Positions 44,730 to 60,574 of a stretch of 64,000 nt of DNA are shown here, piece by piece; positions within the stretch are counted from its first letter, which is position 1, and each line of letters starts with the position of its first letter. The notes beneath the pieces were generated by a model, which saw only the letters and a program-made list of their open reading frames with translations, was not told where the DNA came from and made no database searches. Source of the DNA: a virus (Duplodnaviria; Heunggongvirae; Uroviricota; Caudoviricetes); IMG/VR virus record IMGVR_UViG_3300042341_001208, one strand, 5' to 3'. Both the position numbers and the translations under genes were made by a program.

Positions 44730-44951
44730 ATGCCAAAGAAAAAAATTAAGGAGGGGGAACTTTCTAGAAGAGAGCAAATGCTCATGAAAGAAAATGCTAT
44801 CATCAAAGGAAAATTAGGATTTGCCCTTGGTGTATTGGAAACTGTTCAAATCTTAACTAGAAACGTAAGTCCTGAAATACTAGAGAAAAATCTGGAGCAT
44901 CTGAGATTGACAATCCCGAGATCTCTAGAGGACCTTAGATCTGGTCTTTAA
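44730..44951 (+). CDS. small hypothetical protein
   Basis: 73-aa ORF with basic N-terminus. Confidence 0.3.
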   Translation: MPKKKIKEGELSRREQMLMKENAIIKGKLGFALGVLETVQILTRNVSPEILEKNLEHLRLTIPRSLEDLRSGL

Positions 44952-45505
44952 TCAACTTTAATCAGTTTAATTGTAGCACCTTTATATCCCTCTGCTTCTT
45001 TAGCAAGAGTTAAATTTTCTTGGCTATCATCAAAGAAAGTCAAATGCTTAAATCCTAAATCAATTAAATCTTTTATTGCTTCCTTTTTTCTATCTGCAAT
45101 GGTTCCTTTATAACCATACTGAGGATCACTTATAGCAATTACAAGTTGTGGATGTATGTCAATCCCATTTTCTAAAAAGAAGTCCCTCACGAGCTTGCTA
45201 GAGCTTCTAGCAGTCACAATAGCAACAGGGATTCCTCTCTTATAGTAGCTTTTGAGCTTGTTAAATATCTCATGGATAAATCTTCCCTGTCTTAGAATTT
45301 CAGGGTTTAGAAAATCCCCAAAATCCAGAACGTGCTTAGATGGTTTAGATTCGAATGTGTTGAATTCCTGAGGGGTTAAGGACTTGATAATTTTCCCGGT
45401 TTTTCTGTCTACAATTTTTATCTTTGCATCAGTTCTGACAATAGTATCATCTAAATCAAAAATAACTAATCTGTTACCGGTATCTATTCCTTTAATTTCT
45501 ATCAC
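44948..45505 (-). CDS. HAD-superfamily phosphatase
   Basis: Motif I LVIFDLDDTIV (DxDxT); later KGIPVAIVTARS and FFDDS motifs. Confidence 0.55.
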   Translation of the reverse strand: MIEIKGIDTGNRLVIFDLDDTIVRTDAKIKIVDRKTGKIIKSLTPQEFNTFESKPSKHVLDFGDFLNPEILRQGRFIHEIFNKLKSYYKRGIPVAIVTARSSSKLVRDFFLENGIDIHPQLVIAISDPQYGYKGTIADRKKEAIKDLIDLGFKHLTFFDDSQENLTLAKEAEGYKGATIKLIKVD

Positions 45506-45533
45506 TCTTTGGGATAATTTCCCTTATATATTT

Positions 45534-46202
45534 TTAAATTTTAACTTTTACGATTCTAGTTTTATCTGAGATCTTCCTTTCTTCTAAGATTTCATATTTT
45601 AGAGTTGTTAATCCATCCGAATTTATTTTTTCCATCGCATTTTTTTGCCCTTCAGGGGAGCTAAATGAGAAATATTTTTTAAGATTCTCGTCATATAAAT
45701 CTTTGACAATATTTCTTTCGTGAGCTAACGATCTATATCTTCCATTTTTCCTAGATGTTGGGATCCCATTTAAAATGCATCTCAACATAACGTCGTCATC
45801 CTCTGCTCCCCACCCCCAGTAATCGTTAGAATATCCATTTGCCTTGATAAAGGAATGCTTATCGAAAATGGTAACCCCTCCGAAATACTTATGGTAAGGG
45901 AGTTTGTATCCAAATTGCTCCGCTTCAGCTGCTAAATGGGTTGGATTCGGGGTATAAGTATAATCCGATGTTATTGGTAACATATCAACGTCATGGAAAC
46001 AATAGTAATCTGCAGAAGGTGATTCAAGTGCTCCGACGTTTAATAATTTTCCTCTGTTGAAAGGTTTATCGTCCTGTTCAACAATTACAATCTCGTAATC
46101 CAAATCCCTTAAGAATTCTGAATTCTCCATATGGGGAACAAATTTTTTTAAATGTTCTTCTCTGTCCCTATATGGAACTATGATAGATAATTTTTTAGAC
46201 AT
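45534..46202 (-). CDS. beta-1,4-galactosyltransferase-like glycosyltransferase (GT7-type)
   Basis: FNRGKLLNVGA, DVDMLP and WGWGAEDDD reproduce the three hallmark B4GALT motifs (FNRAKLLNVGF, DVDLIP, WGWGGEDDD). Confidence 0.7.
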   Translation of the reverse strand: MSKKLSIIVPYRDREEHLKKFVPHMENSEFLRDLDYEIVIVEQDDKPFNRGKLLNVGALESPSADYYCFHDVDMLPITSDYTYTPNPTHLAAEAEQFGYKLPYHKYFGGVTIFDKHSFIKANGYSNDYWGWGAEDDDVMLRCILNGIPTSRKNGRYRSLAHERNIVKDLYDENLKKYFSFSSPEGQKNAMEKINSDGLTTLKYEILEERKISDKTRIVKVKI

Positions 46203-46279
46203 CAGATATTTTAGTTCATACTTTTGTTAAAGTTTCCGAAACATTATTCTTCTTCCCCGGTATAATTTTAAATTATTCT

Positions 46280-47128
46280 ATGATTTATTTTAGAAGCATC
46301 GGCTACATGGGAAGGCTTGGAAATCAGATGTTCCAGCTTGCTTCAACAGTAGGAATAGCAAAAGAAAGAGGATTTGGTGCCGGAATTCCTATTGAGAATT
46401 GCACCAGAAAAATTGGAAGCGGACCAATTGACGTTAAAACCGGATTACAGACGAATGTTAAGTGCGATCTTTTAGATTGTTTCAATATCCCGTCAAAATA
46501 TTTAATTCCGTTCAGTGAGGTAAAACCTCAGTACATTTACTACGAGGGGGATTTTAAATTCAATCCTCAGGTTCTATCTTTGGAACCATATACAGATTTA
46601 TCTGGATACTTTCAAACCGAGGAATATTTTAAAAAATATAGGGAAGAAATTCTAGAAATCTTTACTTTTAAAAAAGAAGATGAAGAAGAAGCAAGAAATT
46701 TTCTATTAGAGAAGGTTCATTCTCTATCATCAAATAAGAATGTAATTTCTATTCACGTAAGAAGGGGGGATTATACGCTATATCCAAACCATCATCCGGT
46801 TTGTTCCGATGACTATTATAAATCTGCAATTGAAAAATTCGATCTAAAAAATTCTGTGTTTCTAGTTTTTTCTGACGATATCGAATGGTGCAAGAAAAAA
46901 TTTGAAGGAGACAGTTTTATATTTTCAGAAACTAACAATCCATATGTGGATCTTGCAATTATGACAATGTGTGACCATCACATTATTGCAAACTCTTCTT
47001 TTAGCTGGTGGGGTGCCTGGTTAAATAGATCTAAGGACAAGAGAGTTATAGCTCCTTCCAGATGGTTTGGTCCTTCTTTACCTAAAGACACGAGTGACAT
47101 ATATTGCGAGGGATGGGAAATAATATGA
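46280..47128 (+). CDS. alpha-1,2-fucosyltransferase-like glycosyltransferase (GT11)
   Basis: GRLGNQMFQLAS N-terminal motif and ANSSFSWWGAWL C-terminal motif of GT11. Confidence 0.7.
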   Translation: MIYFRSIGYMGRLGNQMFQLASTVGIAKERGFGAGIPIENCTRKIGSGPIDVKTGLQTNVKCDLLDCFNIPSKYLIPFSEVKPQYIYYEGDFKFNPQVLSLEPYTDLSGYFQTEEYFKKYREEILEIFTFKKEDEEEARNFLLEKVHSLSSNKNVISIHVRRGDYTLYPNHHPVCSDDYYKSAIEKFDLKNSVFLVFSDDIEWCKKKFEGDSFIFSETNNPYVDLAIMTMCDHHIIANSSFSWWGAWLNRSKDKRVIAPSRWFGPSLPKDTSDIYCEGWEII

Positions 47129-47883
47129 GCAACAACTTCTTTTCCATAACGATAAACACCTTTAATCACGAGAATTGGATAGAGGGATGTCTATACAGCT
47201 GTTTAAACCAGGATTATGATAACTTTGAAGTTATCGTTATAGACGACATTTCAACCGATAAGACTTTTGAGATATGCTCCAGGATACAAAAAGAATTTCC
47301 AGGAAAATTAAGAGCTATAAGAAATGAGAATAAAATATTCTCGCAGGTCCGAAATATTCTAGAGCTCACTCTTCTTTCTAAGGAAAATTCTATAGTGGTT
47401 TCTGTCGATGGGGATGATTGTTTAAAAAACAACCAGGTTCTAAAAAAACTAAATGAGGTCTATAATTCCGGAGAAGTCTGGATGACCTATGGAAGATATG
47501 AAGAATATCCTTATAACGACGTTTCTGGAAGTTATTATGCTTACCCAGATCATATAATACAAGGAAATTTATTTAGGGAATACAGATGGATGGCTTCTCA
47601 TCTAAGAACTTATAGAAGAGAATTGTTTTTGAAAATCAAGGAAGAGGACTTTAAATTACCCGATGGTGAATGGCTTGACGTAACAGGGGATCAGGCATTT
47701 ATGCTTCCAATGTTGGAGATGTCAAAAGAGAGAAGCAGATTTATTCCTGATATTCTTTATGTTTATAACGTAGCTAATCCCACAAGGGACGGAGCAACTA
47801 AAGTTCATAGACAAGAAGAGGTAGCAAGATACATTAGATCAAAAGAAAAATACACCAGATTAGAAACATTAAATGAAAGATAA
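47125..47883 (+). CDS. family 2 glycosyltransferase
   Basis: Start at ATG 47125 overlapping upstream stop; FSITINTFNHENWIEGCLYSCLNQDYDNFEVIVIDDISTD (GT-A, DxD). Confidence 0.6.
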   Translation: MSNNFFSITINTFNHENWIEGCLYSCLNQDYDNFEVIVIDDISTDKTFEICSRIQKEFPGKLRAIRNENKIFSQVRNILELTLLSKENSIVVSVDGDDCLKNNQVLKKLNEVYNSGEVWMTYGRYEEYPYNDVSGSYYAYPDHIIQGNLFREYRWMASHLRTYRRELFLKIKEEDFKLPDGEWLDVTGDQAFMLPMLEMSKERSRFIPDILYVYNVANPTRDGATKVHRQEEVARYIRSKEKYTRLETLNER

Positions 47884-48568: not shown

Positions 48569-48569
48569 G

Positions 48570-49253
48570 ATGATATCAATTTGTATACCTTGTTACGAGA
48601 TGCACGGGAGAGGAAAGGATTTTCTAGACTTTAATTTGGAAAAAATTAAAGAACAGACCTATCAAGACTTTGAAGTTGTAATTTCAGACCACAGCCAAAA
48701 CGAGGAGATTAAATCTGTATGCGAGAAATATTCATCATTGGGTATGGATGTTAAATATTTTAAAAACGAAAATAATAGGGGGAATTCCTCTAGTAATATT
48801 AATAATGCAATTTCTAATTCTACTGGTGAAATAATTAAAATTATTTTCCAGGACGATTTTCTATATCACATTAATTCTCTAAAAGAAATAAGAGATTCTT
48901 TTTCTTCTAATGATATAGACTGGCTGGTAACAGCTTCTTGTCACACTACAGATGGAATTAACTTCGAGAGATTTTATTATCCAAGATATACAGAAGACAT
49001 TATGACGGGGAATAATTTAATAAGCTCTCCGAGTGTTTTAAGTTTTAAAAATACCGGAGATGTTTGGTTTGACTCAAATTTAATCTGGCTAATGGACTGC
49101 GATATGTACAAAAGACTCTATATGAGATATGGGGATCCTTTCTATTTAAATCGAATTAATGTTGTTAACAGAACTTGGGAAGGTCAGTATAATAATCACA
49201 TCCCTTGGGAAAGAAAAAAATGGGAAATAGAATACGGGAGACATAAATACTAA
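48570..49253 (+). CDS. family 2 glycosyltransferase
   Basis: ISICIPCYEMHGRG...EQTYQDFEVVISDHSQ ... FQDDFL (DxD-like). Confidence 0.55.
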   Translation: MISICIPCYEMHGRGKDFLDFNLEKIKEQTYQDFEVVISDHSQNEEIKSVCEKYSSLGMDVKYFKNENNRGNSSSNINNAISNSTGEIIKIIFQDDFLYHINSLKEIRDSFSSNDIDWLVTASCHTTDGINFERFYYPRYTEDIMTGNNLISSPSVLSFKNTGDVWFDSNLIWLMDCDMYKRLYMRYGDPFYLNRINVVNRTWEGQYNNHIPWERKKWEIEYGRHKY

Positions 49254-49269
49254 TAATATATAAAATAAA

Positions 49270-49833
49270 ATGAATAATTTAGAACAAATTTACCTTAATA
49301 AATGCGCTACTGCATTAGACATCAACGAGCATTTACCTACTTTAAGGAGATACACAGAAGAATGCGACGTTGTTATCGAAATGGGGGTTAGAAGCATAGT
49401 TTCAACCTGGGCTTTTTTACTAGGGCAGCCAAAAAAATTAATCTCTGTGGACATCGTTCATCCTAAAACTTATATCAATCATGACCCGTCTGGATGCAAT
49501 TTAGATTTGGTTTATGAAATTGCAGAAGAGAGAGAAATTGAATTTGAATTTATAGAGTCAGATACCTTAAAAATGGATCCCATTGAATGTGATTTTTTAT
49601 TCATCGATACCCTTCATGATTACGATCAACTAAAGGAAGAATTAAGAATCCATTCGCCTTCTGTTAAAAAATACATAGGCCTTCACGATACAGAAACTTT
49701 TGCAATCAAAGGAGAAACCCCAGGAAAAGAAGGAATCTGGAGAGCAGTGGAGGAATTCCTATCTGAAGGAGAATGGAGAATTGGAGAAAGGTTTACAAAC
49801 AATAACGGACTTACTATTCTATCTAGGATTTAA
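49270..49833 (+). CDS. putative class I methyltransferase-fold protein (sugar O-methyltransferase/CmcI-like)
   Basis: VIEMGVRSIVSTW and FLFIDTLHDYDQL blocks resemble TylF/CmcI-type methyltransferases; weak. Confidence 0.35.
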   Translation: MNNLEQIYLNKCATALDINEHLPTLRRYTEECDVVIEMGVRSIVSTWAFLLGQPKKLISVDIVHPKTYINHDPSGCNLDLVYEIAEEREIEFEFIESDTLKMDPIECDFLFIDTLHDYDQLKEELRIHSPSVKKYIGLHDTETFAIKGETPGKEGIWRAVEEFLSEGEWRIGERFTNNNGLTILSRI

Positions 49834-49855
49834 TGAACAACCCCCGAAATAAGAT

Positions 49856-50521
49856 ATGCTTAAACTAGAAAACGTAACTCTCATAGCTTTAACAAGCGTT
49901 AGAATCCCTCAGACAATAAAAGCTCTGGAATATAGTTGCAGGGGAATCCAATTTGGAGATGTTAAATTAGCTTCCGATATAAAACCAGAAAATTTACCTG
50001 CTTTCATAAAACATGAGTATACCGAAAGAAGTTCAAATATTGATGAGTGGAATTATAATATAATTTATAATCTATCCAAACATATAGAAACAGATTATGC
50101 AATTCTCATTCACGATGATGGTTTTATAGTAAATCCGGAATCTTGGAGGAATGAATTTTTAGAATATGATTACATAGGAGCTCCTTGGGCTTTACCTTCA
50201 GATGATTATTCGTACCGTGATATAAATGGAGAAATCGTTCGCCAGGGAAATAGTGTTTCTCTAAGAAGTAAAAAATTAATAGATATTCCAAATAAATTAA
50301 ATCTGGAATGGAAGTCTTTCTATGGATTTACAAATGAAGACGGATTTATATGTGCGCATTATAGGCATAGGTATATAGAAGAAGGATGTAAATTTGCAGA
50401 CATTGATGTTGCCAAATACTTCTCACACGAAACAATGATACCAGAAATAGAAGGAATAAAACCATTTGCATTTCATAGACACTTTGGTACCAATTCGATT
50501 TACCCTAATTATGGAAGATAA
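49856..50521 (+). CDS. hypothetical protein (glycan-locus associated)
   Basis: 221-aa ORF; HDDGFIVNPESW segment; no firm motif. Confidence 0.4.
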   Translation: MLKLENVTLIALTSVRIPQTIKALEYSCRGIQFGDVKLASDIKPENLPAFIKHEYTERSSNIDEWNYNIIYNLSKHIETDYAILIHDDGFIVNPESWRNEFLEYDYIGAPWALPSDDYSYRDINGEIVRQGNSVSLRSKKLIDIPNKLNLEWKSFYGFTNEDGFICAHYRHRYIEEGCKFADIDVAKYFSHETMIPEIEGIKPFAFHRHFGTNSIYPNYGR

Positions 50522-51200
50522 AGAATTGGTGATATCCGCTTATGATAAACCAATCGATTGGTTGTCGTTAATTGATGATAATGTTAAAAAAACAATTTAT
50601 CGAAAGGGAAATGCACTCCCATTGTCTAGTGGTGAAATTTTAATTGAACCAAATATTGGCAGATGCGTACATAGTTTTTTCAATCATATTAAAAATAATT
50701 ATTACAATTTATCCGATTATACATTTTTTGCTCAGGATTACCCATTTGATCATTGGGAAGATTTAATCTATGTTGTTAATGGTAATATTGAAACCTTTAT
50801 AAATCGTTCAGCATTGAATATTGGTGGGTATTATGGATATCACTTTAATACTATTAAGGTTCCCTCAGAAAGAGGGGGGGTAATGCACACGATGCATCCG
50901 TCACAGCATCACGGGAAAGGTAATGTAATCTCCTGTTATAGCAACGGGATGCCTCATGACCACAATCCAAATATCAACGTTGATGTGTACTGGGATTTAT
51001 TATTTGATGAACCCAGGCCAAATATGTATGAATTCATACCAGGGGGTCATTTCGGAATATCCAAAGAACATGTTCATTTAAGATCCCTTGATTTTTATAT
51101 AAAAGTGACTTCTTTATTGGAAGAAAACGAAACAGCCCCGTGGTTAATTGAAAGACTTGAATGCTACATATTTAATTCAAAATACAAGACAAAATTATGA
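50511..51200 (+). CDS. hypothetical protein
   Basis: Start set to ATG 50511 (MEDKEL...) rather than track 50466; His-rich (MHTMHPSQHHGKG). Confidence 0.4.
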   Translation: MEDKELVISAYDKPIDWLSLIDDNVKKTIYRKGNALPLSSGEILIEPNIGRCVHSFFNHIKNNYYNLSDYTFFAQDYPFDHWEDLIYVVNGNIETFINRSALNIGGYYGYHFNTIKVPSERGGVMHTMHPSQHHGKGNVISCYSNGMPHDHNPNINVDVYWDLLFDEPRPNMYEFIPGGHFGISKEHVHLRSLDFYIKVTSLLEENETAPWLIERLECYIFNSKYKTKL

Positions 51201-52057
51201 GTAAAGTACAAATAATTTCTATTTTTGATAAACATGAAGATTTTATTAAATTACAATATGAGAGTATTGTAAATCACGTTGAAGGAGATTATGAATACAT
51301 TATTTTTAATAATGCTTCTGATGAATTGCAAGCAATTCAAAATAAAAAAATGTGTGAAGAATTAGATATCAAATGTATTAGAATTCAAGTTAACTACAAC
51401 TTAGACCCATCAAATATTGCTGGGGCTGCTCTTAACGAAGCTTTTAGTTATTTTTCAGAAGAATCAGTTTTTAAAATTGATTCTGATATGTTTTTTATTT
51501 CAAATATTAACCTGACTGAACTTTTTGAATCTTCAGACCTGATATACATACCAAATTATGTTCTGGGCTTGGAAATCATGTGGAGTGGTGTTTTTGGGAT
51601 AAATATGAAAAAAATTGATATCTCATTAAATTTTAAGCCAAGCGTTATACCACAAACAGACACGTTTGACCAGTCATCATTATTGACAAAAAATAACAAA
51701 TATATTAAAAAAATATTTAAACTATATTCTATTCAAAATATAACGGATAATGTTGTTATTTCTTCTTTAAATAATGATTGTGGAATCTATATAAAGGACA
51801 ATGAAATAATATTCAACGAAAAGCCAGAATATTATTCAGATAAAGAAACCTTGGTAAATTTAAATGATAAAATTTTGGGGATTTTAAATATTATGAAATT
51901 ATATGAATTTCCAGTACCATACAATGTAGATATGATTGAAATTAACGGGGTTAATTTCATGTTTCATTTTAAATCCTCTAATTGGTGTCCCTGGTATACA
52001 GACCAATATGTTACACTAAAAAAAGACTCCTTAATAAAATACTTAAAAAATAATTAA
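51197..52057 (+). CDS. hypothetical protein
   Basis: 286-aa Asn/Ile-rich ORF with ATGA overlap. Confidence 0.4.
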   Translation: MSKVQIISIFDKHEDFIKLQYESIVNHVEGDYEYIIFNNASDELQAIQNKKMCEELDIKCIRIQVNYNLDPSNIAGAALNEAFSYFSEESVFKIDSDMFFISNINLTELFESSDLIYIPNYVLGLEIMWSGVFGINMKKIDISLNFKPSVIPQTDTFDQSSLLTKNNKYIKKIFKLYSIQNITDNVVISSLNNDCGIYIKDNEIIFNEKPEYYSDKETLVNLNDKILGILNIMKLYEFPVPYNVDMIEINGVNFMFHFKSSNWCPWYTDQYVTLKKDSLIKYLKNN

Positions 52058-52873: not shown

Positions 52874-52876
52874 ATT

Positions 52877-53617
52877 ATGGATATTATAAATACAAATTTG
52901 AATGTGCAAAAGATTAGTGATCCGTATGATATATGGATTATTGATAATTTTTTAAAAGAACATACTTTGAAAGGTATTAAAGATGCATGGCCATCTTATG
53001 AAAATGATGCTTGGTATGTTGGACACCCTGAAATAGACGGTAAAAAGAATATATTAGAACAGGGTATGCTAGGAATTAGTAAAGTAGGGGAAATGCCTGA
53101 ATTCATTAGCAATGTTATGAGTTATATCCACACAAAAGAGTTTACAGAAAGGATATCTAACCTTTTAAATTTACAAAACCTATTTCCAGATGAGCATATG
53201 AGATGGTCAGGTATGAGAACAATGCTTCCAAATTCATTCCAATTGATTCATAGTGATGCTAGAAAATCACCTAATTCAGGAATGCGTAAAGAGGTAACTT
53301 GTTTATTGTATCTGAATGAGAACTATAATAAAGAAAATGATGGCGGTTGTTTAGAAGTCTGGTCCGATGATATGTCAACTTGTATGCATGAAATTGAACC
53401 TATCTCAAATAGGTTTGTTGCTTTTTTAAACAGCGATACTTCCTACCATGGTGTACCAACTGTAAAATCAGAAAGAAAGTTAATTACATTCTCTATTTTA
53501 GCAAATGATAGTTCTACCGATCGATATAAAGCTCTATTCGTTGCAAGACCTACCGATTCTGTTGAAGTTGGAATCGAAGGTGTTAAAAGGTCACAAATAA
53601 AAGATATTAAAAAATAA
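52877..53617 (+). CDS. 2OG-Fe(II) oxygenase, prolyl 4-hydroxylase-like
   Basis: HSDA (HxD), RKEVTCLLYLNENYNKENDGGCLEVW (R..T.L.YLN...GGE..F) and YHGVPTVKSERK (distal His + basic 2OG ligand). Confidence 0.55.
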   Translation: MDIINTNLNVQKISDPYDIWIIDNFLKEHTLKGIKDAWPSYENDAWYVGHPEIDGKKNILEQGMLGISKVGEMPEFISNVMSYIHTKEFTERISNLLNLQNLFPDEHMRWSGMRTMLPNSFQLIHSDARKSPNSGMRKEVTCLLYLNENYNKENDGGCLEVWSDDMSTCMHEIEPISNRFVAFLNSDTSYHGVPTVKSERKLITFSILANDSSTDRYKALFVARPTDSVEVGIEGVKRSQIKDIKK

Positions 53618-53621
53618 AAAT

Positions 53622-54767
53622 ATGGAAGTAAAAAATTATCCTATATTCAAGGTTCATGTCGATGTAGATGGAGCTTTAGAAAATTTAAAAACGGTATTAA
53701 CTAGTGGTTTTTTGAATGAAGGTGAGTGCGTAACACAATTTACCGATTTTTTAAATAATTATCTAAACCATAAAAATGTAGTTTTATTAAATAGCTGTAC
53801 ATCAGCACTTACGTTAGCATTAAAATTGGCTGGGGTTTCTCCTAATGATGAAGTTATTACGACGTCGATGACGTGTGTTGCTACTGTCACCCCAATATCT
53901 AATTTAGCAGCAAAAGTAGTTTGGTGTGATATTGATTACAAAACAGGAAACATAGACCCGTTGAAGATAGAGTCATTAATCACCAAAAAAACCAAAGCTA
54001 TTCTGTGTGTGAATTGGGCTGGTATTCCGTGTGATTTGGAAATGCTACAAGCAATCTGCAAAAAACATGGCATCAAACTTATACAAGATGCAGCACATTC
54101 CTTTGGCGCAAAGTATAATGGAGAGTCCATATGCCACTATGCAGACTATACTTGTTTTAGTTTTCAAGCTATTAAGCATATAACTACCGGGGATGGAGGA
54201 GCTTTGATCTGCAAATCTGAACAGGATTTTGAAAGGGCTAAAAAATTAAAATGGTTTGGTATTGATAGAGATGCTACTAAAAATGAAAAGGGTGAGTGGA
54301 AAGGTCAGAGATGGGAAGTAAATATATTGGAAGCTGGATATAAGTTTCATATGAATAACGTATCGGCTGCTATTGGATTGTCCCAAATTCCCCATATTGA
54401 TAACATAATACAATCTCACATCGATAATGCAAATATTTATGATAATTTATTTAAAGACAATCCACACATAAAACCTTTAAAAATTAATAAAAATACACAA
54501 CCGACATATTGGGTATACACTGTAATACTGGATGAAAGTATTAATCGTAATGATGTTTTAGAAAAAATGAACAAACAAGGCATAGCTGCAGGGTTAGTAC
54601 ATATTCCATGTGATGGATATCAGTGTTTTGAAGATAGTAAAACAGACCTACCACATACAAAGTATTTTTACGAGCATCAGCTATCTCTTCCGTGTGGGTG
54701 GTGGTTAAATTCAGAAGATATTAATTTCATAACCAATACACTAATTAAAATTCTACACAATGAATAA
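53622..54767 (+). CDS. DegT/DnrJ/EryC1/StrS-family sugar aminotransferase (PLP-dependent)
   Basis: Conserved Lys motif CFSFQAIKHITTGDGGAL (SF..K....GEGG) and fold-type I layout. Confidence 0.75.
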   Translation: MEVKNYPIFKVHVDVDGALENLKTVLTSGFLNEGECVTQFTDFLNNYLNHKNVVLLNSCTSALTLALKLAGVSPNDEVITTSMTCVATVTPISNLAAKVVWCDIDYKTGNIDPLKIESLITKKTKAILCVNWAGIPCDLEMLQAICKKHGIKLIQDAAHSFGAKYNGESICHYADYTCFSFQAIKHITTGDGGALICKSEQDFERAKKLKWFGIDRDATKNEKGEWKGQRWEVNILEAGYKFHMNNVSAAIGLSQIPHIDNIIQSHIDNANIYDNLFKDNPHIKPLKINKNTQPTYWVYTVILDESINRNDVLEKMNKQGIAAGLVHIPCDGYQCFEDSKTDLPHTKYFYEHQLSLPCGWWLNSEDINFITNTLIKILHNE

Positions 54768-55629
54768 CATTCACAGTACTTCATTCATAGATCCATATAT
54801 TCAGCTCGGAAAATTTAATCACGTTGGGAAAAATGTACAAATCAAGTACCTTGACGAAAATAACAAGCCATCCGTTGTAATCGGAGATAATAACATTATC
54901 AACGATAATACAAGAATCTTAATAGGGGAAAATCCACTGAGTATAGGAGATTGGAATGTTTTTCATAACGACATGCTAGTTATGGTTGGTAAAAAGATTG
55001 ACATTGGTCATAATTGTTGGTTCGGTCAAAATACAATTTTAGATGGATCCGGAGGACTTTCTATAGCTAACGGGGTTAGAGTTGGAATGTATTCTCAAAT
55101 ATGGACACACGTTGCTAGCGGTGAATTAATAGAGGGATGCTTATTGTTTGGAGACAGTAAGACAAACATCGAAGACGATGTTTGGTTAGTTGGAAGCTGT
55201 ACAGTTTCTCCAGGGGTTTGTTTAAGAAAAAAATCAGTTTTTTTAATAGGATCCATAGTAACAAAGGACTCGGAAATCGAAAAGGTATACTCAGGAACAC
55301 CAGCCACTATTAATGATAAAATAAAAGCTTGGAAAGAGATCTATCCTGTTGATAAATTAAAAATGCTACTTGAATGGAGTGAGATTTTTTGTATCGGTAA
55401 AAAATACGAAATTGACAATCAAATCGAATCGGGATACTTTACCGTCAAATCTACCGAAGATAAAGAGATGTTAATTTTTTTTATCAATGGGGGATTTTCG
55501 ATACCAAACGAATATGTTGTCAGTTTATTTAATGTATTGGACAAGACACTTACCAAAAAAAATAGTCTCTTAGAAAGAACATTTTATAAATCTATTTATA
55601 ATAATAAAGCTAGATTTCGTATCATATAA
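54760..55629 (+). CDS. hexapeptide-repeat (left-handed beta-helix) sugar N-acetyltransferase
   Basis: Repeated [LIV]G..... hexads: IDIGHNCWFGQNTILDGSGGLSIANGVRVGMYSQIWTH. Confidence 0.6.
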   Translation: MNNIHSTSFIDPYIQLGKFNHVGKNVQIKYLDENNKPSVVIGDNNIINDNTRILIGENPLSIGDWNVFHNDMLVMVGKKIDIGHNCWFGQNTILDGSGGLSIANGVRVGMYSQIWTHVASGELIEGCLLFGDSKTNIEDDVWLVGSCTVSPGVCLRKKSVFLIGSIVTKDSEIEKVYSGTPATINDKIKAWKEIYPVDKLKMLLEWSEIFCIGKKYEIDNQIESGYFTVKSTEDKEMLIFFINGGFSIPNEYVVSLFNVLDKTLTKKNSLLERTFYKSIYNNKARFRII

Positions 55630-55641
55630 AAATAAAAAATC

Positions 55642-56601
55642 ATGAAAAATAAAAAAATACTCCTAATAGGAGGAAGCGGAGCTCTTGGAAAAACTCTAAT
55701 AGGGCTCTATCAAAACGTGAATCAAATCAAAGTATTGAGTAGGGACGAACACAAACAAGTCAATTTAATATCTTCAGATTGGGTAAACAAAGAAAACGTT
55801 AGTTTTATGATCGGAGACGTTAAGGATAAAGATTGTATCCTAAACGCTATAGAAGATTATAGACCAGATATAATCATAAACGCAGCTGCGTTGAAGCACG
55901 TTCCTGTGTGTGAAATAAACCCATACGAATCGGTTAACGTGAATATAATTGGGCATCAAAACTTGTTAGAGGCTGTGAGACGTAGTAAGCATACTATAGA
56001 GACTTTGATTTATGTATCATCTGATAAAGCGTGTAAACCGGTAAACATCTACGGAATGTGTAAAGCAATCTCTGAAAGATTGTATATTGAATTTGCAAAA
56101 AAACAAACGGATATAAAAGTTTGCTTAGTTCGATATGGAAACGTTTTGGAATCTACAGGTTCTGTTATTCCATACTTTAAGCAGCTATTAAAAGATGGAG
56201 TAACAGAACTACCCATCACAGATTTACGTATGACAAGATTTTTATTAACACTGGAATCAGCAGCTAAGCTAATAGAATGGGCATACTACAGTCCCATATC
56301 ACACGGTAAGATAGCAATACCTAAAGTACAATCATTTAAGATAATAGATATCGCAAATGCTTTAATATCAGAATATCATCCAAATTCAGACATTAAATTG
56401 AAAGTTGTAGGAATACGAAAAGGTGAAAAATTACACGAGGAAATGATATCTTCCGAAGAGTGGTTGCGTACTGAAGATCACGAAAACTATCTTATTACAG
56501 ATGAAATAATTAGAGAAGAGGGGATTTCTTATAATTCCTATGACAGTGTGATGCACGAAGAGAAAGTTCATGATTTCTTAAAGCTTTGCGGTGTGATCTA
56601 A
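55642..56601 (+). CDS. UDP-HexNAc 4,6-dehydratase-like SDR (PseB/FlaA1/CapD-type)
   Basis: Rossmann ILLIGGSGALGKTL; YVSSDKACKPVNIYGMCKAISE reproduces S.DKA..P.N.YG.TK catalytic block (YxxxK). Confidence 0.65.
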   Translation: MKNKKILLIGGSGALGKTLIGLYQNVNQIKVLSRDEHKQVNLISSDWVNKENVSFMIGDVKDKDCILNAIEDYRPDIIINAAALKHVPVCEINPYESVNVNIIGHQNLLEAVRRSKHTIETLIYVSSDKACKPVNIYGMCKAISERLYIEFAKKQTDIKVCLVRYGNVLESTGSVIPYFKQLLKDGVTELPITDLRMTRFLLTLESAAKLIEWAYYSPISHGKIAIPKVQSFKIIDIANALISEYHPNSDIKLKVVGIRKGEKLHEEMISSEEWLRTEDHENYLITDEIIREEGISYNSYDSVMHEEKVHDFLKLCGVI

Positions 56602-56673
56602 TAATATAATGGGAGTAACAGAAATATACAACGGACAAAGATCAAGTAATTTACTAAGGAAAAATAGGATCTT

Positions 56674-57585
56674 ATGATAACAACAAATTTAACAGGTAAC
56701 TTAGGAAATCACATGTGGCAATATGCTGTATGTAGAGCCATATCCGAAAAACTTGGATATGAATGGGGGATAAATCCTTCTCCCTCGCATGACTATCACA
56801 ATGGGATGAACCAAATGTATTTTATGGATGTGGATTTTGGGAAATTTCCAGAAGGTGAATTTGTAGACTTTCATGAAAAATGGACAACATATAGACACAT
56901 AGATGATGTCAATATCACTTTTTTAGATCCTAGAGTTTATCAGATTCCAGATGGGACTCGAATGATAGGAGATAATGGAGCATTGGGAGGAATTTATCAA
57001 TGTGAAGATTATTTGATAGAAAGGAAGGAAGAGATATTAAAATGGTTCAGCATCAGGAACGAATACAAGAATAAGTTTGATTTGGAGATGGAAAAAATGG
57101 GAATTGTTCTTGATGAAAATACCTGTGTTATAAATTTCAGAGGTGGAGAATATAGGGGCCTTAGTAATGTAATTCTAAGAAGAGAATATTGGAGGGACTC
57201 TATAAATCATATGCTTTCTCTAAATCCTCAAATGAAATTCGTAATTGTCACAGACGATCCGGGATGCGCTTCCTCGTTTATGCCATTTGACATTCCGACT
57301 GTACACGGAGAGATTGGATTAGATTTTTATACAGTTAATCAATCAAAATGGGTAATTTTATCCAACTCTACTTTTGGATGGTGGGCAGGATGGTTAAACA
57401 CCAGGGCAGAAAAAATCATAGCTCCAAAATATTGGGCAAGACACAATGTTAGTGATGGGTACTGGGCAACTGGGGAATCTTATACCAGAGGATTCACATA
57501 TCTTGATAGAGAAGGATCTCTATCTGACTACGAAACTTGTAAAAAAGAAGCTTTAGATTACTATAAATTAAAAAATATTATATGA
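56674..57585 (+). CDS. alpha-1,2-fucosyltransferase-like glycosyltransferase (GT11), second copy
   Basis: GNLGNHMWQYAVC and SNSTFGWWAGWL GT11 motifs. Confidence 0.65.
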   Translation: MITTNLTGNLGNHMWQYAVCRAISEKLGYEWGINPSPSHDYHNGMNQMYFMDVDFGKFPEGEFVDFHEKWTTYRHIDDVNITFLDPRVYQIPDGTRMIGDNGALGGIYQCEDYLIERKEEILKWFSIRNEYKNKFDLEMEKMGIVLDENTCVINFRGGEYRGLSNVILRREYWRDSINHMLSLNPQMKFVIVTDDPGCASSFMPFDIPTVHGEIGLDFYTVNQSKWVILSNSTFGWWAGWLNTRAEKIIAPKYWARHNVSDGYWATGESYTRGFTYLDREGSLSDYETCKKEALDYYKLKNII

Positions 57586-58445
57586 GAATTTTTGACGGAT
57601 TTTGTTTCTTTAACGAGCTTGACATACTAGAAATTAGATTAAATACCCTGGATCCCCATGTTGATTATTTTATAATAGTAGAATCCTCCGTAACACACAC
57701 TGGAAATCCTAAACCCTATTATTTTGAAGAAAATAAAGAAAGATTCAAAAAATTTCTACCAAAAATCATACATTTGAAAATAGAAGATACCCCTAATAAT
57801 TTCACTGATCTGGGAGAAGATTTATTAGGTTCTGATTTTGATTCTCTAGAAGTTAATAGGATAAGTGGATTTATAAAAAATCAAAGTTGTTTTAATATAA
57901 ACCACGAGATTCATTATGGGAGGGATTTTTACCAAAAAGAATGTGTCAGAAGAGGATTTGAGTTCTGCGAAGACGATGATATTATAATTTTTTCAGATTG
58001 CGACGAAATTCCAAATCCTGAAATTCTAAAATCTTTAAAGACCTTTTATAACCCAGATTTGTTCTATGATTTTTTACAGACTACTTATTATTATTATTTA
58101 AATGTTCTCAAGGAAAAAAACTGGAGAGGATCTTCTATGGGGTCTTTTAAAAGATTAAAGGAATTTTCTCTTAATCAATTAAGGGCTCAGAAAAATCAAG
58201 AAATTGAAAATGGAGGATGGCATTTTAGTTTTATGGGAGGTCCAGAAAAAGTAAGAACTAAGATAACATCCTATTCCGCTCAGGAAATGCTAAATGCAAA
58301 TGTATTACAATCTATAGAGAACAATATAAATAATAATATAGATCCTTTCTTTCGAAGTACTCTTTCGACAGTGTGGATAGATTCATCATACCCTTCATAT
58401 ATTACCGAAAATCTACCTAAATTTAATCACATGATAAAAAAATAA
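57582..58445 (+). CDS. GT17-like glycosyltransferase (MGAT3 family fold)
   Basis: FDGFCFFNELDILEIRLNTLDPHVDYFIIVESSVTHTGNPKP matches the GT17 N-terminal signature (D.F.F..ELD.LE.RL..L...VD.FvivES..T..G.PK). Confidence 0.6.
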   Translation: MRIFDGFCFFNELDILEIRLNTLDPHVDYFIIVESSVTHTGNPKPYYFEENKERFKKFLPKIIHLKIEDTPNNFTDLGEDLLGSDFDSLEVNRISGFIKNQSCFNINHEIHYGRDFYQKECVRRGFEFCEDDDIIIFSDCDEIPNPEILKSLKTFYNPDLFYDFLQTTYYYYLNVLKEKNWRGSSMGSFKRLKEFSLNQLRAQKNQEIENGGWHFSFMGGPEKVRTKITSYSAQEMLNANVLQSIENNINNNIDPFFRSTLSTVWIDSSYPSYITENLPKFNHMIKK

Positions 58446-58504
58446 TAATTTCCTGAAATTATTCCTGAAATTTTATCTAAGATAATCTATACAAATTCAA
58501 AAAA

Positions 58505-59791
58505 ATGATAAACCAAGAAAGTATTAAAAGTCTGGTGGGAAATCACGTTTCCCCCTACATATACAACTCCAAAGAGTTCAAGCCCGGAAAAACCCCCATC
58601 TATTATTCAGGTCCATATTGGGACAATAGAGAAGCAGAAGCAGCTATAGACTCTTTGCTTAATGGAAGATGGATAACAGCAGGGGAAAAAGTCTTTTTGT
58701 TTGAAAGAAAGTTCAGCAAAAGATTTAATGTACAGCATTCTCACATGGTAAATTCAGGCAGTTCTGCAAATCTTGTTATGATAACTGCTTTGAAGACTAG
58801 ATTTGGCTGGGAAGACGATGACGAAATTATAGTTTCCCCAGTTGGATTTCCAACAACCATTTCTGTTTTGCACCAGAATAGATTAAAACCTGTATTTGTT
58901 GATATCGAATGGGAAACCTTAAATTTTGATGTCAGCAGAATCGAGGAAAAAATCACTCCAAAAACAAAGGGAATTTTCGTTTCTCCTGTTCTGGGTAATC
59001 CTCCAGACATGGATGAAATTCTAAGAATTGCAGAGAAACATAATCTTAAAATTATAGGCGACAATTGTGATTCTTTAGGAAGTAAGTGGGATGGAAAATA
59101 CCTAAATGAATACTATGTTGCTTTCTCAAATTCTTTCTACCCGGCACACCATATTTCTACTGGAGAAGGTGGAATGATCTGCACAAATGACGAGGAAATT
59201 AAAAAGCTTCTTGTTAGTATTTCATGGTGGGGCAGAGACTGCTATTGTGTTGGATCTGCTAATCTACTTTCTTGTGGGACTTGTGGAAAGAGATTTGACA
59301 ACTGGTTAGAATCTTATGACGGAATTGTGGATCACAAATATGTCTTTTCTAATATGGGATACAATCTAAAGCCTTTAGATCTTCAAGGTGCTATAGGACA
59401 AGTTCAACTTGAGAAGATAGACGAAATAGAAGAAAACAGGAAAAAATCTAAGAGCCGAATAGAAGAAATTTTCATCTCCAATATTAAGGGGATAAAACCG
59501 GTTCAAACTCATGCAAAATCAGATGTTTGTTGGTTCGGTACCCCGTTTATTTGCGAAGAAGAAGGACTAAAACACAGACTTGTTGATTACTTAGAAGCCA
59601 ATAAAATTCAAACCAGAAATTATTTTGCTGGTAATATTTTACTTCATCCTGGTTACAAATTCCTAGATGATTTTAATAACTACCCAGAGGCAAATAAAGT
59701 TCTTGATAAGGTTTTCTTCATAGGAGCAGCTCCCCACTATACAGAGGTAGTTTTCGATTACATTGAAGAGGTTGTTAAAAATTTTAAATGA
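58505..59791 (+). CDS. PMP/PLP-dependent sugar 3-dehydratase (DdhC/AscC/ColD-like) with Cys cluster
   Basis: DegT fold but active-site motif FYPAHHISTGEGG has His in place of Lys as in E1/ColD dehydratases; CYCVGSANLLSCGTCG Cys cluster as in [2Fe-2S] E1. Confidence 0.6.
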   Translation: MINQESIKSLVGNHVSPYIYNSKEFKPGKTPIYYSGPYWDNREAEAAIDSLLNGRWITAGEKVFLFERKFSKRFNVQHSHMVNSGSSANLVMITALKTRFGWEDDDEIIVSPVGFPTTISVLHQNRLKPVFVDIEWETLNFDVSRIEEKITPKTKGIFVSPVLGNPPDMDEILRIAEKHNLKIIGDNCDSLGSKWDGKYLNEYYVAFSNSFYPAHHISTGEGGMICTNDEEIKKLLVSISWWGRDCYCVGSANLLSCGTCGKRFDNWLESYDGIVDHKYVFSNMGYNLKPLDLQGAIGQVQLEKIDEIEENRKKSKSRIEEIFISNIKGIKPVQTHAKSDVCWFGTPFICEEEGLKHRLVDYLEANKIQTRNYFAGNILLHPGYKFLDDFNNYPEANKVLDKVFFIGAAPHYTEVVFDYIEEVVKNFK

Positions 59792-60486
59792 GAGTAGTTA
59801 TTCTAGGCGATGGTCTATTGGGAAGCTATCTAAGAGATAAAACCCAATGGGATTTTATAAGCAGGAAAAAAGACGGAATCGATTTTTCTAATCTAGATTC
59901 ATATTCTTCTAAATTGGAAGAATATGATGTTGTTGTTAATTGTATTGCAAATACCGACACTTATTCAGAAGATAGGAATTTGCATTGGGAAATCAACTAC
60001 GAAGGCGTTGCAAATTTAATTGATTTTTGCAACTCTTCAAATAAAAAAATAATTCATATCTCTACAGATTATATCTATACCTTTTCAAAAGATAACGCTT
60101 CAGAAAATGACGTTCCTGTCCATTCCAGAAATTGGTATGGATACACTAAATTACTTGGAGAGGGGTACGTTTTATTGAGATCTAAAAATTATCTAGTCAT
60201 AAGGACTACACAGAAAAAAACCCCATTTACTTATCCAAAGGCATACATAAATCAAGTAGGAAATTTTGACTATGTTGATAAGATAGGAGATTTGATAATA
60301 AGACTGATAGAATCTGGTGCTACTGGAATTTATAATGTGGGGACAGATAAAAAGTCTATGTACGATCTAGCTCTACAGACAAACGATAAAGTAGTTGCAA
60401 CTATGGATTTATTTGATCCAACGACACCAATTAATCTAACCATGGATTTATCGAAAATGAATAAATTCCTAGATGATGGTATATAA
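59788..60486 (+). CDS. short NAD(P)-dependent sugar reductase/epimerase-like protein (RmlD-like)
   Basis: N-terminal Rossmann MRVVILGDGLLGSYL; 232 aa, shorter than RmlD. Confidence 0.4.
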   Translation: MRVVILGDGLLGSYLRDKTQWDFISRKKDGIDFSNLDSYSSKLEEYDVVVNCIANTDTYSEDRNLHWEINYEGVANLIDFCNSSNKKIIHISTDYIYTFSKDNASENDVPVHSRNWYGYTKLLGEGYVLLRSKNYLVIRTTQKKTPFTYPKAYINQVGNFDYVDKIGDLIIRLIESGATGIYNVGTDKKSMYDLALQTNDKVVATMDLFDPTTPINLTMDLSKMNKFLDDGI

Positions 60487-60489: not shown

Positions 60490-60574
60490 GGAGAGGTGGC
60501 AGAGCGGTCTAATGCGGCAGTCTTGAAAACTGTTGAAGGTCACACTTCCGGGGGTTCGAATCCCTCCCTCTCCG
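60490..60574 (+). tRNA. tRNA-Ser (anticodon UGA)
   Basis: Acceptor GGAGAGG/CCTCTCC, anticodon arm GCAGT-CTTGAAA-ACTGT (anticodon TGA), long variable arm GAAGGTCACACTTCC, T loop TTCGAAT; 85 nt without CCA; starts 4 nt after upstream stop. Confidence 0.85.

Follow-up and report, generated by a model that had tools for sequence, protein, structure and literature searches.

Clusters of sugar genes resembling those for lipopolysaccharide (LPS) have been recognised in large lytic phages for twenty years, and to our knowledge nobody has shown the product or the target of any of them. Cyanophage P-SSM2 carries 24 'LPS' genes (Sullivan 2005, PMC1079782), clusters with eight or more transferase families have been described in jumbo phages, large clusters being mainly a cyanophage feature (Iyer et al. 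2021, PMC7824862), and S-SCSM2R has been reported with 13 transferases (PMC12801897). Homologous jumbo-phage clusters have been interpreted as makers of host-surface glycans (PMC1079782; PMC7824862). A minimal form of the vertebrate-type glycosyltransferase (GT) family GT6 is known in P-SSM2, and the characterised prokaryotic members BoGT6a and PaGT6, like human GTA and GTB, require Fuc-alpha1,2-Gal acceptors (PMC3516806). Searches of open-access full text found no paper linking jumbo-, mega- or huge phages with galactosyl- or fucosyltransferases, and none describing GT7, GT17 or GT92 islands in phages. The locus studied here lies in a 64,000-nucleotide stretch of IMG/VR virus record IMGVR_UViG_3300042341_001208 (the whole of this stretch is referred to as the window), and is a block of about 18 kb of mostly co-directional genes that forms a glycan-biosynthesis island of an uncultivated phage. 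Soluble glycosyltransferases number at least eight (GT7, two GT11, two GT2, GT31, a GT92-like enzyme and GT17), and the island also encodes up to four further transferase candidates (GT2c, the DUF5672 and DUF3431 proteins and a protein of 251 amino acids (aa)), one protein of sugar O-methyltransferase fold and two incomplete nucleotide-sugar branches. While islands of this kind are already known, what is new is the lineage, a relative of megaphages, together with a fixed address beside a ClpC-like gene, at which conserved arms enclose a swappable centre, and the complement of families.

The initial annotation of this DNA had proposed an island of about 15 kb at positions 44948-60486. Its central claim, that of a dense set of glycan-biosynthesis genes in a phage, is borne out, and nearly all of the families that it named hold when compared with Pfam. 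The interval is filled by 19 closely packed open reading frames (ORFs), two on the minus strand (44948..45505 and 45534..46202) and 17 on the plus strand, separated by gaps of -56 to +77 nt. The borders are probably wider than first drawn, however, with the true island running from the stop codon of the ClpC-like gene (42531) to a tRNA-Ser gene and the hairpin behind it (60490..60614). This hairpin was the only notable result of a scan for promoters and terminators, which otherwise returned no more sites than were found in shuffled sequence. A methyltransferase gene standing between ClpC and the GT7 gene pair probably belongs to the island, because in relatives the ClpC-to-GT7 interval holds further sugar genes, those of relative L085 being for a GT9, a C-methyltransferase, an epimerase and a GT2. 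The same insert is seen in L086, its GT9 protein having 744 aa and belonging to the heptosyltransferase family, and its C-methyltransferase being of the sugar type. In L084 and L085, a gene for ribosomal protein bS21 (12651..12857 and 11778..11975, respectively) is also situated between ClpC and the GT7 pair. The guanine-plus-cytosine (GC) content of the island is 0.32-0.34, falling to 0.254 in GT2c, against 0.375 in the upstream part of the window. Islands with identical proteins occur on at least 16 independent metagenome contigs, the longest on record being 126.8 kb.

Gene-by-gene comparison with relatives divides the island into three parts. In the left arm, HAD and GT7, which share a strand, are followed by GT11a, GT2a, GT31, GT2b, the O-methyltransferase (present in this window) and DUF5672; the central cassette (50466..56601) contains DUF3431, GT2c, the GT92-like gene, a 2-oxoglutarate (2OG)-Fe(II) oxygenase and a PseC/acetyltransferase/PseB trio; and the right arm is made up of GT11b, GT17, an RfbH-like dehydratase and an RmlD-like reductase. 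Relatives, which include viral contigs of 373, 390, 430 and 434 kb, keep the order ClpC, GT7, GT11, while the cassette downstream differs. The more distant huge-phage relatives retain only ClpC, GT7 and GT11a, the last two being the sole island genes found in every relative examined. At the position of the central cassette, the close relatives L084 and L085 have two FkbM methyltransferases and unknown genes. The cassette of L008 (IMGVR_UViG_3300042558_004148, 373 kb; 424..5706, minus strand) encodes Gmd (GDP-mannose 4,6-dehydratase, 2e-116), an epimerase/reductase and Glf (UDP-galactopyranose mutase, 5.5e-74), and this phage is predicted to provide its own supply of GDP-fucose and galactofuranose. 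L011 (IMGVR_UViG_3300034116_002156, 430 kb) carries a GT6 with a DVD motif (1713..2432, minus strand; 3.3e-23), of which the best solved relative is BoGT6a of Bacteroides ovatus (E 2e-35; human ABO transferases 1.5e-17); it also encodes a HAD-nucleotidyltransferase fusion and, at 905..1720, a second GT7C protein that scores weakly. Megaphage LR756502 also has the right arm, as do cultured Synechococcus myoviruses, in which identities are 29-58%.

Island genes are also found as small modules on viral contigs that are otherwise unrelated, for instance GT17, DUF5672 and DUF3431 in L092 (3001..5213), or DUF5672 adjoining a GT92-like gene in L106-L108 (2316..3765). This spread of modules suggests that cassettes are shuffled among aquatic phages.

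A megablast comparison of the island with GenBank phages gave no match at the DNA level. Two uncultured megaphages, LR756502.1 (642 kb) and LR745206.1 (635 kb), have counterparts of the ClpC-like gene (40402..42531) at 62% identity, and in both the counterpart likewise lies directly upstream of a glycosyltransferase cluster. These two genomes belong to the Mahaphage clade, for which hosts in the Bacteroidetes have been predicted (PMC7162821; PMC9723777). The window belongs to a relative of these >630-kb megaphages, with a probable host in the Bacteroidota. Such a host fits the type IX secretion sorting domain of a protein of 1697 aa encoded at 7251..12344 (plus strand), which combines a Sec signal peptide (MAQKYLSKALAFALTLFATQGNLHA) and eight PKD domains with a C-terminal sorting domain of the CHU_C type; it is a candidate for a phage product displayed on the surface of a Bacteroidota host and, as such, a clue to that host. 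PHROG families in the window include a virion structural protein, tRNA nucleotidyltransferase, NAMPT, a PurZ/PurA-like synthetase and a MoxR-type ATPase, and neither the island flanks nor the rest of the window contain bacterial housekeeping genes. Assignment of the contig to a giant virus or a bacterium was considered and rejected, in view of the PHROG matches, the tRNA, the compact overlapping genes and the synteny with curated megaphages.

Both halves of the GT7 family score well above their Pfam cut-offs (Glyco_transf_7N 7.5e-18, 64.9 bits against 27; Glyco_transf_7C 1.8e-23, 82.4 bits against 23), and the three B4GALT motifs to which the initial annotation had pointed are exact, with FNRGKLLNVG starting at 46061, DVDMLP (its DVD being the part that binds metal and UDP) at 45992 and WGWGAEDDD at 45818 on the minus strand. 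They line up with the same motifs of B4GALT1 and are largely conserved in 12 viral relatives, with a few diverging. The protein matches the solved human and bovine B4GALT1 with an E value of 3e-40 over residues 4-212 (B4GALT7, 4e-28), and is 36% identical to human B4GALT1 over 213 aa. Neither a membrane anchor nor any hydrophobic segment is present, the type II topology and stem of the eukaryotic members, which catalysis does not require, being absent. The tyrosine of its YFGG stretch is the residue that selects Gal over GalNAc as donor in the bovine enzyme (Y289 of B4GALT1), and the predicted activity is of the beta-1,4-Gal type. The neighbouring HAD protein scores below the Pfam and NCBIfam cut-offs (HAD_2 20.7 bits, TIGR01681 26 bits), and is 64-67% identical in L007, L008 and L084-L086, where it likewise adjoins GT7. 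Of the two HAD phosphatases attributed to the island, only this weak match falls within the interval; the other HAD protein found, at 25036, is of RNA-repair type and lies far outside it.

A tblastn search of 50,697 GenBank phage records with GT7 gave no match. Metagenomes, by contrast, yielded 1530 proteins at E<=1e-5, some on contigs of 390-400 kb, and these relatives constitute a large family of 222-223-aa proteins. GT7-like genes were found at no fewer than 31 viral loci in IMG/VR, and minimal enzymes of this type at 44 loci in bacterial genomes, among them those of SAR11 and a Rhodoplanes isolate. Pattern-based IMG/VR counts are lower bounds, as the scan for GT31 returned 0 loci though L007, L084 and L085 carry the gene. 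GT7-like genes are thus not exclusive to eukaryotes, but are common on viral metagenome contigs and occur in bacterial chromosomes. Together with the GT17, GT11 and GT2 islands annotated in cultured Synechococcus myoviruses, this means that the earlier description of GT7, GT17 and GT92 as overwhelmingly eukaryotic, and unusual in a phage, was overstated, although it is true that GT7 is absent from GenBank phages. In SAR11, a GT7-like gene of approximately 259 aa is present in many single-cell genomes of Pelagibacteraceae (L068-L083); at the single locus examined, L076 (5974..6753), it has the histidine operon on one side and a TRAP transporter on the other.

The phage GT7 is as close to human B4GALT1 as it is to any bacterial homologue. 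Human B4GALT1 scores 133-155 bits against the phage proteins and 60-127 bits against the bacterial chromosomal homologues, a difference that may reflect evolutionary rate only. A neighbour-joining tree of the viral and bacterial sequences with human B4GALT1 has a star-like base; it recovers the viral sequences as a monophyletic clade but does not fix the position of B4GALT1, and the phylogeny suggested for tracing the donor lineage consequently assigns no donor. Capture from a eukaryote and derivation from bacteria were both rejected as established origins, since the tree cannot place B4GALT1.

The two GT11 assignments were correct, both genes exceeding the Pfam gathering cut-off (23.9 bits; the others used were Galactosyl_T 23, GT17 26, GT92 23.0 and Glycos_transf_2 23.3 bits). 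GT11a has the canonical HVRRGDY form of motif I (HxRRGDY, GDP-fucose binding), and is the neighbour of GT7 in every huge-phage relative, where its identity is 45-56%. In GT11b, 73% identical in L007, the N- and C-terminal motifs of the family are visible while HxRRGDY is absent, because of which this enzyme may use a donor other than GDP-fucose. The GT17 assignment also stands; at least 17 IMG/VR loci carry the family, to which the automated JGI annotation gives an MGAT3-type name. Two of the three predicted GT2 enzymes, at 47104 and 48570, were confirmed, but the third (51197) fell below the cut-off; GT2a is called as 256 aa on the identical contigs. A GT31 at 47873, the DUF5672 and DUF3431 proteins and the 2OG-Fe(II) oxygenase had not been listed previously. 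GT31 has a DxD-type motif (DDD at residues 94-96), and occurs at the same position in L084 and L085. The DUF5672 protein is 85% identical in L084 and 83% in L007. Its homologue in cyanophage RB11-B bears a depositor's note, 'glyco_tranf_GTA_type domain', which is the sole label marking it as a transferase; neither a profile-profile comparison with GT92 nor a profile search against the PDB gave a match. The real start of the DUF3431 gene is probably 50511, the protein being called as 229 aa on the identical contigs, and it is 60% identical in L092, where it adjoins GT17 and DUF5672. The 251-aa protein has no Pfam or NCBIfam match but has homologues within the islands of relatives (71% in L084, 56% in L008), and is possibly a transferase of the GT-A type.

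PDB sequence searches gave no match for GT17, GT31, GT11a, HAD, the GT92-like protein (as a single sequence) or the O-methyltransferase profile, and the folds of the GT92-like protein and the O-methyltransferase were therefore predicted. The case for GT92 at 52058 is mixed. Its Pfam score is borderline and exceeded by that of Glyco_tranf_2_4, yet most homologues at 38-53% identity carry PF01697. The AlphaFold model (predicted local distance difference test, pLDDT, 92.5) has as its top PDB match in Foldseek the poplar enzyme GalS1 (8d3t; E 1.3e-8), the next family, SpsA (GT2), being about 250-fold weaker. A profile of the homologues matches 8d3t around the DVD motif (E 0.0033), and D96 and D98 are invariant. 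GalS1, the only solved GT92, is thus the best match for the modelled fold. The methyltransferase fold proposed for another protein of the island is supported in the same way: at 49270..49833, where the protein's own Pfam match is not significant (E 0.038) and some homologues carry PF04989 or PF13578, the model is closest to the Mycobacterium hassiacum sugar O-methyltransferase MeT1 (E 2.7e-9, TM score 0.68), and the protein is probably a sugar O-methyltransferase.

The nucleotide-sugar pathway of the initial annotation resolves into two partial branches, neither of which is complete. The PseC-like and PseB-like enzymes score 284 bits for TIGR03588 and 262 bits for TIGR03589, well below the respective equivalog cut-offs of 423 and 408. 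Between them, the hexapeptide protein has sub-threshold matches to the NCBIfam WcaF and NeuD/PglB/VioB families, and is probably an amino-sugar N-acetyltransferase. Pfam and NCBIfam detected no PseG, PseI or PseF (hydrolase, synthase and CMP-transferase) in the island; a complete pseudaminic acid pathway was rejected, PseB and PseC being sub-equivalog and the later steps missing. It is plausible that the trio performs the first three steps only, ending at a diacetamido-trideoxyhexose. In the second branch, the RfbH-like protein scores 364 bits for NCBIfam RfbH against a cut-off of 423. It is read as a 3-dehydratase because a histidine replaces the Schiff-base lysine (in SFYPAHHISTGEGG) and because the spacing of its cysteines (Cys188-X57-Cys246-X-Cys248-X8-Cys257) resembles the iron-sulfur motif of E1, these two features being the hallmarks of E1 (RfbH). 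It is 82% identical in L007. The adjoining short RmlD-like protein, the homologue of which in LR756502 also lies directly 3' of RfbH, is probably a 4-ketoreductase that completes the deoxysugar, and the two look like a pair making a 3,6-dideoxyhexose. No cytidylyltransferase, 4,6-dehydratase or E3 reductase for this branch was found in the island or in the part of the window that was scanned, and a complete dideoxyhexose pathway was rejected on the grounds that these earlier steps are missing.

Table 1. Coordinates and supporting matches of the features of the island and its right border.
Position	Strand	Feature	Evidence and remarks
42739..43605	+	Class I S-adenosylmethionine-dependent methyltransferase	Pfam Methyltransf_12 3.5e-8, Methyltransf_25 1e-6; left flank
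43937..44692	+	251-aa conserved protein	WYIHIDEDCF stretch; island member in relatives
44948..45505	-	HAD-superfamily phosphatase-like protein	Motif I FDLDDT; partner of GT7
45534..46202	-	GT7 beta-1,4-galactosyltransferase-like minimal catalytic domain, 222 aa	Pfam 7N + 7C
46280..47128	+	GT11a, alpha-1,2-fucosyltransferase-like	Glyco_transf_11 4.6e-35, 121.7 bits; divergent from GT7
47104..47883	+	GT2a glycosyltransferase	Glycos_transf_2 4.2e-18; 80% identical in L007
47873..48568	+	GT31 (Galactosyl_T) beta-1,3-glycosyltransferase-like	PF01762 2.6e-15, 57.2 bits, profile positions 19-190/195
48570..49253	+	GT2b glycosyltransferase	Glycos_transf_2 7.7e-16; 41% identical in LR756502
49270..49833	+	O-methyltransferase fold, cation-dependent class I, 187 aa	AlphaFold pLDDT 95
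49856..50521	+	DUF5672 protein	Pfam DUF5672 2.1e-11; most conserved island protein
50466..51200	+	DUF3431 protein	Pfam DUF3431 3.6e-9; opens the window-specific central cassette
51197..52057	+	GT2c, weak GT2-like protein	Glycos_transf_2 19.4 bits, below cut-off 23.3; very low GC (0.254)
52058..52873	+	GT92-like GT-A glycosyltransferase	Glyco_tranf_2_4 2.5e-9 (38 bits); GT92 23.4 bits against 23.0
52877..53617	+	2OG-Fe(II) oxygenase, prolyl-hydroxylase-like superfamily	2OG-FeII_Oxy_3 2.8e-14
53622..54767	+	PseC-like pyridoxal-phosphate (PLP) sugar 4-aminotransferase	DegT 5.5e-97; Schiff-base lysine in SFQAIKHITTGDGG
54760..55629	+	Hexapeptide (left-handed beta-helix) acyltransferase	Hexapep 2.8e-6
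55642..56601	+	PseB/FlaA1-like UDP-GlcNAc 4,6-dehydratase	Polysacc_synt_2 1.2e-79
56674..57585	+	GT11b, divergent GT11	Glyco_transf_11 8.5e-8, 32.2 bits; first gene of the conserved right arm
57582..58445	+	GT17 (GnT-III family) glycosyltransferase-like	Glyco_transf_17 9.9e-29, 100.9 bits, in two stretches
58505..59791	+	RfbH/E1-type pyridoxamine-phosphate-dependent 3-dehydratase of nucleoside-diphosphate (NDP)-4-keto-6-deoxyhexose	Second DegT; NCBIfam RfbH 6.9e-109
59788..60486	+	Short RmlD-like short-chain dehydrogenase/reductase (SDR)	RmlD_sub_bind 3.2e-21; TIGR01214 1.8e-20, N-terminal half only
60490..60575	+	tRNA-Ser(UGA)	ARAGORN; right island border
60591..60614		Terminator-like bidirectional hairpin	3' of tRNA-Ser

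The suggestion that the glycan could be made independently of host enzymes is not supported. No nucleotidylyltransferase and no supply of GDP-fucose or UDP-galactose is encoded in the window; no island ORF matches a Pfam family for a priming phosphoglycosyltransferase, a flippase or ABC transporter, a polymerase or a ligase; and a membrane helix is predicted in none of the island proteins. Because primer, flippase, polymerase, ligase and membrane helices are all lacking, the pathway needs precursors from the host and, for its product, either export by the host or an acceptor in the cytoplasm. The island shows the features by which jumbo-phage surface-polysaccharide clusters are defined, namely NDP-sugar enzymes with several paralogous transferases that are polymorphic between relatives, and departs from those of a self-sufficient O-antigen or capsule locus, whether Wzx/Wzy- or ABC-dependent.

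Decoration of the virion and conversion of the host surface, the two fates that had been put forward for the glycan, are also the two leading hypotheses here. The latter is preferred tentatively, with a confidence that falls somewhat short of even: a fucosylated galactoside would be assembled in the cytoplasm on a lipid-linked precursor of the host, and would re-coat the infected cell. Under this scheme, the PseB-like, PseC-like and hexapeptide acetyltransferase enzymes would convert host UDP-GlcNAc to a UDP-2,4-diacetamido-2,4,6-trideoxyhexose, while the E1-type dehydratase and the short reductase would turn an NDP-4-keto-6-deoxyhexose made by the host into a 3,6-dideoxyhexose. GT7, of the beta-1,4-Gal type, and GT11a, of the alpha-1,2-Fuc type, would lay down Fuc-alpha1,2-Gal-beta1,4-R, resembling the H antigen, to which the remaining transferases and the methyltransferase would add outer sugars specific to the lineage. 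The acceptor, which is the weakest step, might be a host precursor linked to undecaprenyl phosphate (O-antigen, capsule or Bacteroidota O-glycan) at the cytoplasmic face; host machinery would then export the finished oligosaccharide, and the cell would be re-coated in the course of a long infection cycle, masking its receptors against competing phages.

The Fuc-alpha1,2-Gal-beta1,4-R structure is probably the core conserved across the clade, as predicted from the genes, because GT7 and GT11a are kept in every relative examined, because the characterised prokaryotic members of GT6, the family represented in L011, need a Fuc-alpha1,2-Gal acceptor (BoGT6a, PaGT6), and because L008 encodes Gmd and with it a supply of GDP-fucose. 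A lipid-linked host acceptor is proposed since genes for a primer, flippase, polymerase and ligase are all missing and every enzyme is predicted to be soluble. The host surface is favoured as the target because, in the 64-kb window, the island is positioned among genes for host takeover (NAD salvage, chaperone, MoxR/VWA) rather than structural genes, because the 1697-aa PKD protein would indicate that the phage places other products on the host surface, and because homologous clusters have been read in the same way in the literature.

A number of considerations weigh against this interpretation. The view taken in the literature is itself a hypothesis. Eight to twelve transferases look excessive for receptor masking, given that one or two enzymes are enough for temperate phages to block receptors. 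The phages compared probably have different hosts, and a core conserved among them at 56-85% identity is a better fit to an acceptor owned by the phage than to a variable one of the host, and soluble enzymes without export genes would equally suit glycosylation of proteins in the cytoplasm. The acceptors of GT7 and GT11 enzymes vary, B4GALT7 using xylose and some bacterial GT11 enzymes other acceptors or donors, such that the H antigen-like core depends on the usual activities of the two families applying here. Finally, the window is 64 kb of a larger genome, and genes for export, priming or virion structure may lie elsewhere in it.

Several of these points would be accommodated if the soluble enzymes instead glycosylated capsid, decoration or fibre proteins in the cytoplasm, giving the huge virion a coat of glycans, an explanation that we regard as nearly as good as the preferred one, although likewise less likely than not. 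The solubility of all the enzymes and the lack of a lipid-carrier primer, flippase or ligase agree with it; the retention of core genes across the clade, while outer cassettes vary, is the pattern expected for a conserved phage-protein acceptor; and a single, defined oligosaccharide of some complexity would account for the transferase count. Giant viruses use sugar clusters of their own, those with bacillosamine-type pathways being a precedent for glycosylation of the virion, and mycobacteriophages glycosylate theirs with two to four transferases. The mycobacteriophage precedent is that of Freeman 2023, as cited in PMC12619734. However, no recognisable structural genes adjoin the island in the window, and no protein-directed transferase family (for example N- or O-oligosaccharyltransferase, or GT41-like) was identified in it. 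A more specific version, in which the minimal soluble 'Golgi-type' families (GT7, GT11, GT31, GT17 and GT92, with GT6 in relatives) build an epitope like those of the histo-blood groups on virion proteins, must be considered a long shot. Were it true, an H type 2 epitope would be expected, with extension to an A- or B-like form where GT6 is present, and this would be the counterpart in bacterial viruses of the autonomous glycosylation of giant viruses, while the phage gene pool could plausibly have served as reservoir or conduit when these families passed horizontally between prokaryotes and early animals, as has been proposed.

Other explanations carry less weight than either of the leading hypotheses. 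The DegT, 2OG-Fe(II) oxygenase, methyltransferase and HAD phosphatase genes are typical of the tailoring of natural-product sugars, and a small soluble or secreted glycoconjugate, either a glycoside resembling a secondary metabolite or a free oligosaccharide, was proposed by Iyer et al. for a second type of cyanophage cluster (PMC7824862). This is improbable for the present island: aglycone-forming enzymes (polyketide synthase, nonribosomal peptide synthetase, halogenase) and an exporter are absent, the characterised members of GT7, GT11, GT17, GT31 and GT92 act on glycan acceptors, and eight transferases imply a long chain. It is very improbable that the island has no phage function, being either an O-antigen or capsule locus of a bacterium whose contig was mis-assigned or a recent passenger without a role in infection. 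The lower GC content relative to the upstream window, and the bacterial homologues of individual genes, are what such an origin would predict, but the order ClpC, GT7, GT11 recurs on the four large viral contigs and in curated complete megaphages, the flanks hold PHROG families, a tRNA and accessory genes typical of phages with no bacterial housekeeping genes, conservation at 56-85% among relatives indicates purifying selection, and the priming, flippase and polymerase genes of bacterial loci are missing. Least probable of all is hypermodification of DNA, with the transferases glycosylating hydroxymethylated phage bases as a protection against restriction. Modification of DNA is the classical role of phage transferases, and a diversity of DNA glycans has recently been reported (Pyle 2024, as cited in PMC12619734); furthermore, the PurZ/PurA-like and methylenetetrahydrofolate reductase genes of the window imply that nucleotide and folate metabolism are manipulated. 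Against this, no dCMP/dUMP hydroxymethylase or base-modifying enzyme was detected among the scanned ORFs of the window, itself 64 kb of a larger genome, and the families present are those of glycan-elongating enzymes. DNA glycans are not known to exceed one to three sugars, as against the eight or more implied here, or to contain trideoxy-diamino or dideoxy sugars.

The remainder of the window has several other groups of genes. The adenylosuccinate synthetase-like protein at 15953..17011 (plus strand) matches the PHROG family of PurZ, an enzyme of the 2-aminoadenine pathway (1.3e-55; Adenylsucc_synt 2.3e-41), and hints at a possible Z-base genome. A block at 12740..20538 (plus strand) encodes a phosphoribosyltransferase-like protein, a weak Macro domain, NADAR (4.7e-50) and NAMPT (1.9e-157), a combination similar to the sets that jumbo phages have for NAD+ salvage, with a possible role in counter-defence. 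It is followed by a membrane protein of the SPFH/Band-7 type with an N-terminal hydrophobic segment (20614..22536, plus strand) and by a putative RNA-repair trio of tRNA nucleotidyltransferase, RNase T-like exonuclease and HAD_SAK_2 protein (23649..25656, plus strand). The methylenetetrahydrofolate reductase gene is at 28780..29739 (plus strand; 1.2e-65). At 31766..35310, on the minus strand, a MoxR-like AAA ATPase (phrog_1297), a DUF2201_N metallopeptidase-like protein with KOW and a VWA-like DUF2201 protein succeed one another in what looks like a conserved three-gene module. Just after the tRNA, a protein of 702 aa (60847..62955, plus strand) with a PG_binding_1 domain (2.9e-8), one weakly hydrophobic segment and no PHROG match may be involved in lysis or associated with the cell wall.

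The island extends the known sugar clusters of phages from cyanophages to a megaphage lineage that probably infects Bacteroidota. Its conserved gene pair suggests a testable product, a fucosyl-galactoside resembling the H antigen, an idea reinforced by the GT6 of L011 and the GDP-fucose synthesis of L008. A soluble GT7 of 222 aa, drawn from a large undescribed viral and bacterial family, is attractive for enzymology and glyco-engineering, and the family bears on the origin of the Golgi transferase families of animals. Should virions carry the glycan, huge phages would, like giant viruses, be makers of the glycans of their own coats; should it be on the host, it would represent a receptor-masking strategy of lytic phages.

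The closest described systems are the 'LPS' clusters of cyanophages P-SSM2, S-SCSM1, S-SCSM2R, S-B43, S-B05, S-H68, RB11-B and RN05-S. Like the island, these are sets of 15-25 tightly packed genes in large lytic phages, in which NDP-sugar enzymes are combined with paralogous soluble transferases, and they adjoin tRNA genes and differ from one close relative to another (PMC1079782, PMC7824862, PMC12801897). They include homologues of GT17 (32% identity), GT11 (29-38%, GT11b being 29% identical in RB11-B), GT2 (33%), the DUF5672/GT-A-like protein (41%) and the RfbH-type dehydratase (58%, in RB11-B). By contrast, they belong to T4-like cyanophages rather than to a Mahaphage relative linked to Bacteroidota, they have fuller NDP-sugar pathways (a cytidylyltransferase, RmlC and several SDRs) as well as GT25 and an O-FucT-like gene, and the GT7, GT31, GT92-like and DUF3431 genes are features of the island. 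Nearer in lineage is LR756502.1, from a French freshwater lake, the record of which is unannotated and whose cluster was not described in any of the papers found to cite it. In addition to the ClpC-like gene directly upstream, it shares DUF5672 (73%), RfbH (67%), GT11b (52%), the RmlD-like reductase (51%), the 251-aa protein (50%), GT17 (43%) and GT2b (41%), but its cluster is longer, at about 23 kb, has a rearranged gene order, and lacks GT7 and any detectable GT31.

At the level of the enzyme, the nearest counterpart of GT7 is mammalian B4GALT1, with which it has in common the whole catalytic domain, including FNRxKLLNVG, DVD, WGWGxEDDD and the tyrosine of YFGG, while differing in the C-terminal metal-binding loop and in having no cytoplasmic tail, anchor or stem. 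The enzymes for bacterial O-antigens that mimic histo-blood groups, and the DXD-type GT6 proteins of P-SSM2 and Parachlamydia, are likewise minimal soluble versions of vertebrate Golgi families; relative L011 carries a DXD-type GT6 beside GT7 and GT11, whereas the window itself is without GT6 and would have only a predicted epitope of this sort. The glycosylation clusters of giant viruses, such as those for the Mimivirus fibril and the capsid glycans of chloroviruses, have trios of UDP-GlcNAc 4,6-dehydratase, aminotransferase and acetyltransferase, and no export machinery. The island resembles them in uniting virus-encoded cytoplasmic transferases with branches for amino- and deoxy-sugars in the absence of membrane export machinery. 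The giant-virus and mycobacteriophage systems have, however, been shown to decorate virions, whereas for the island virions are one of two candidate targets, and its phage has a bacterial host with lipid-linked pathways available.

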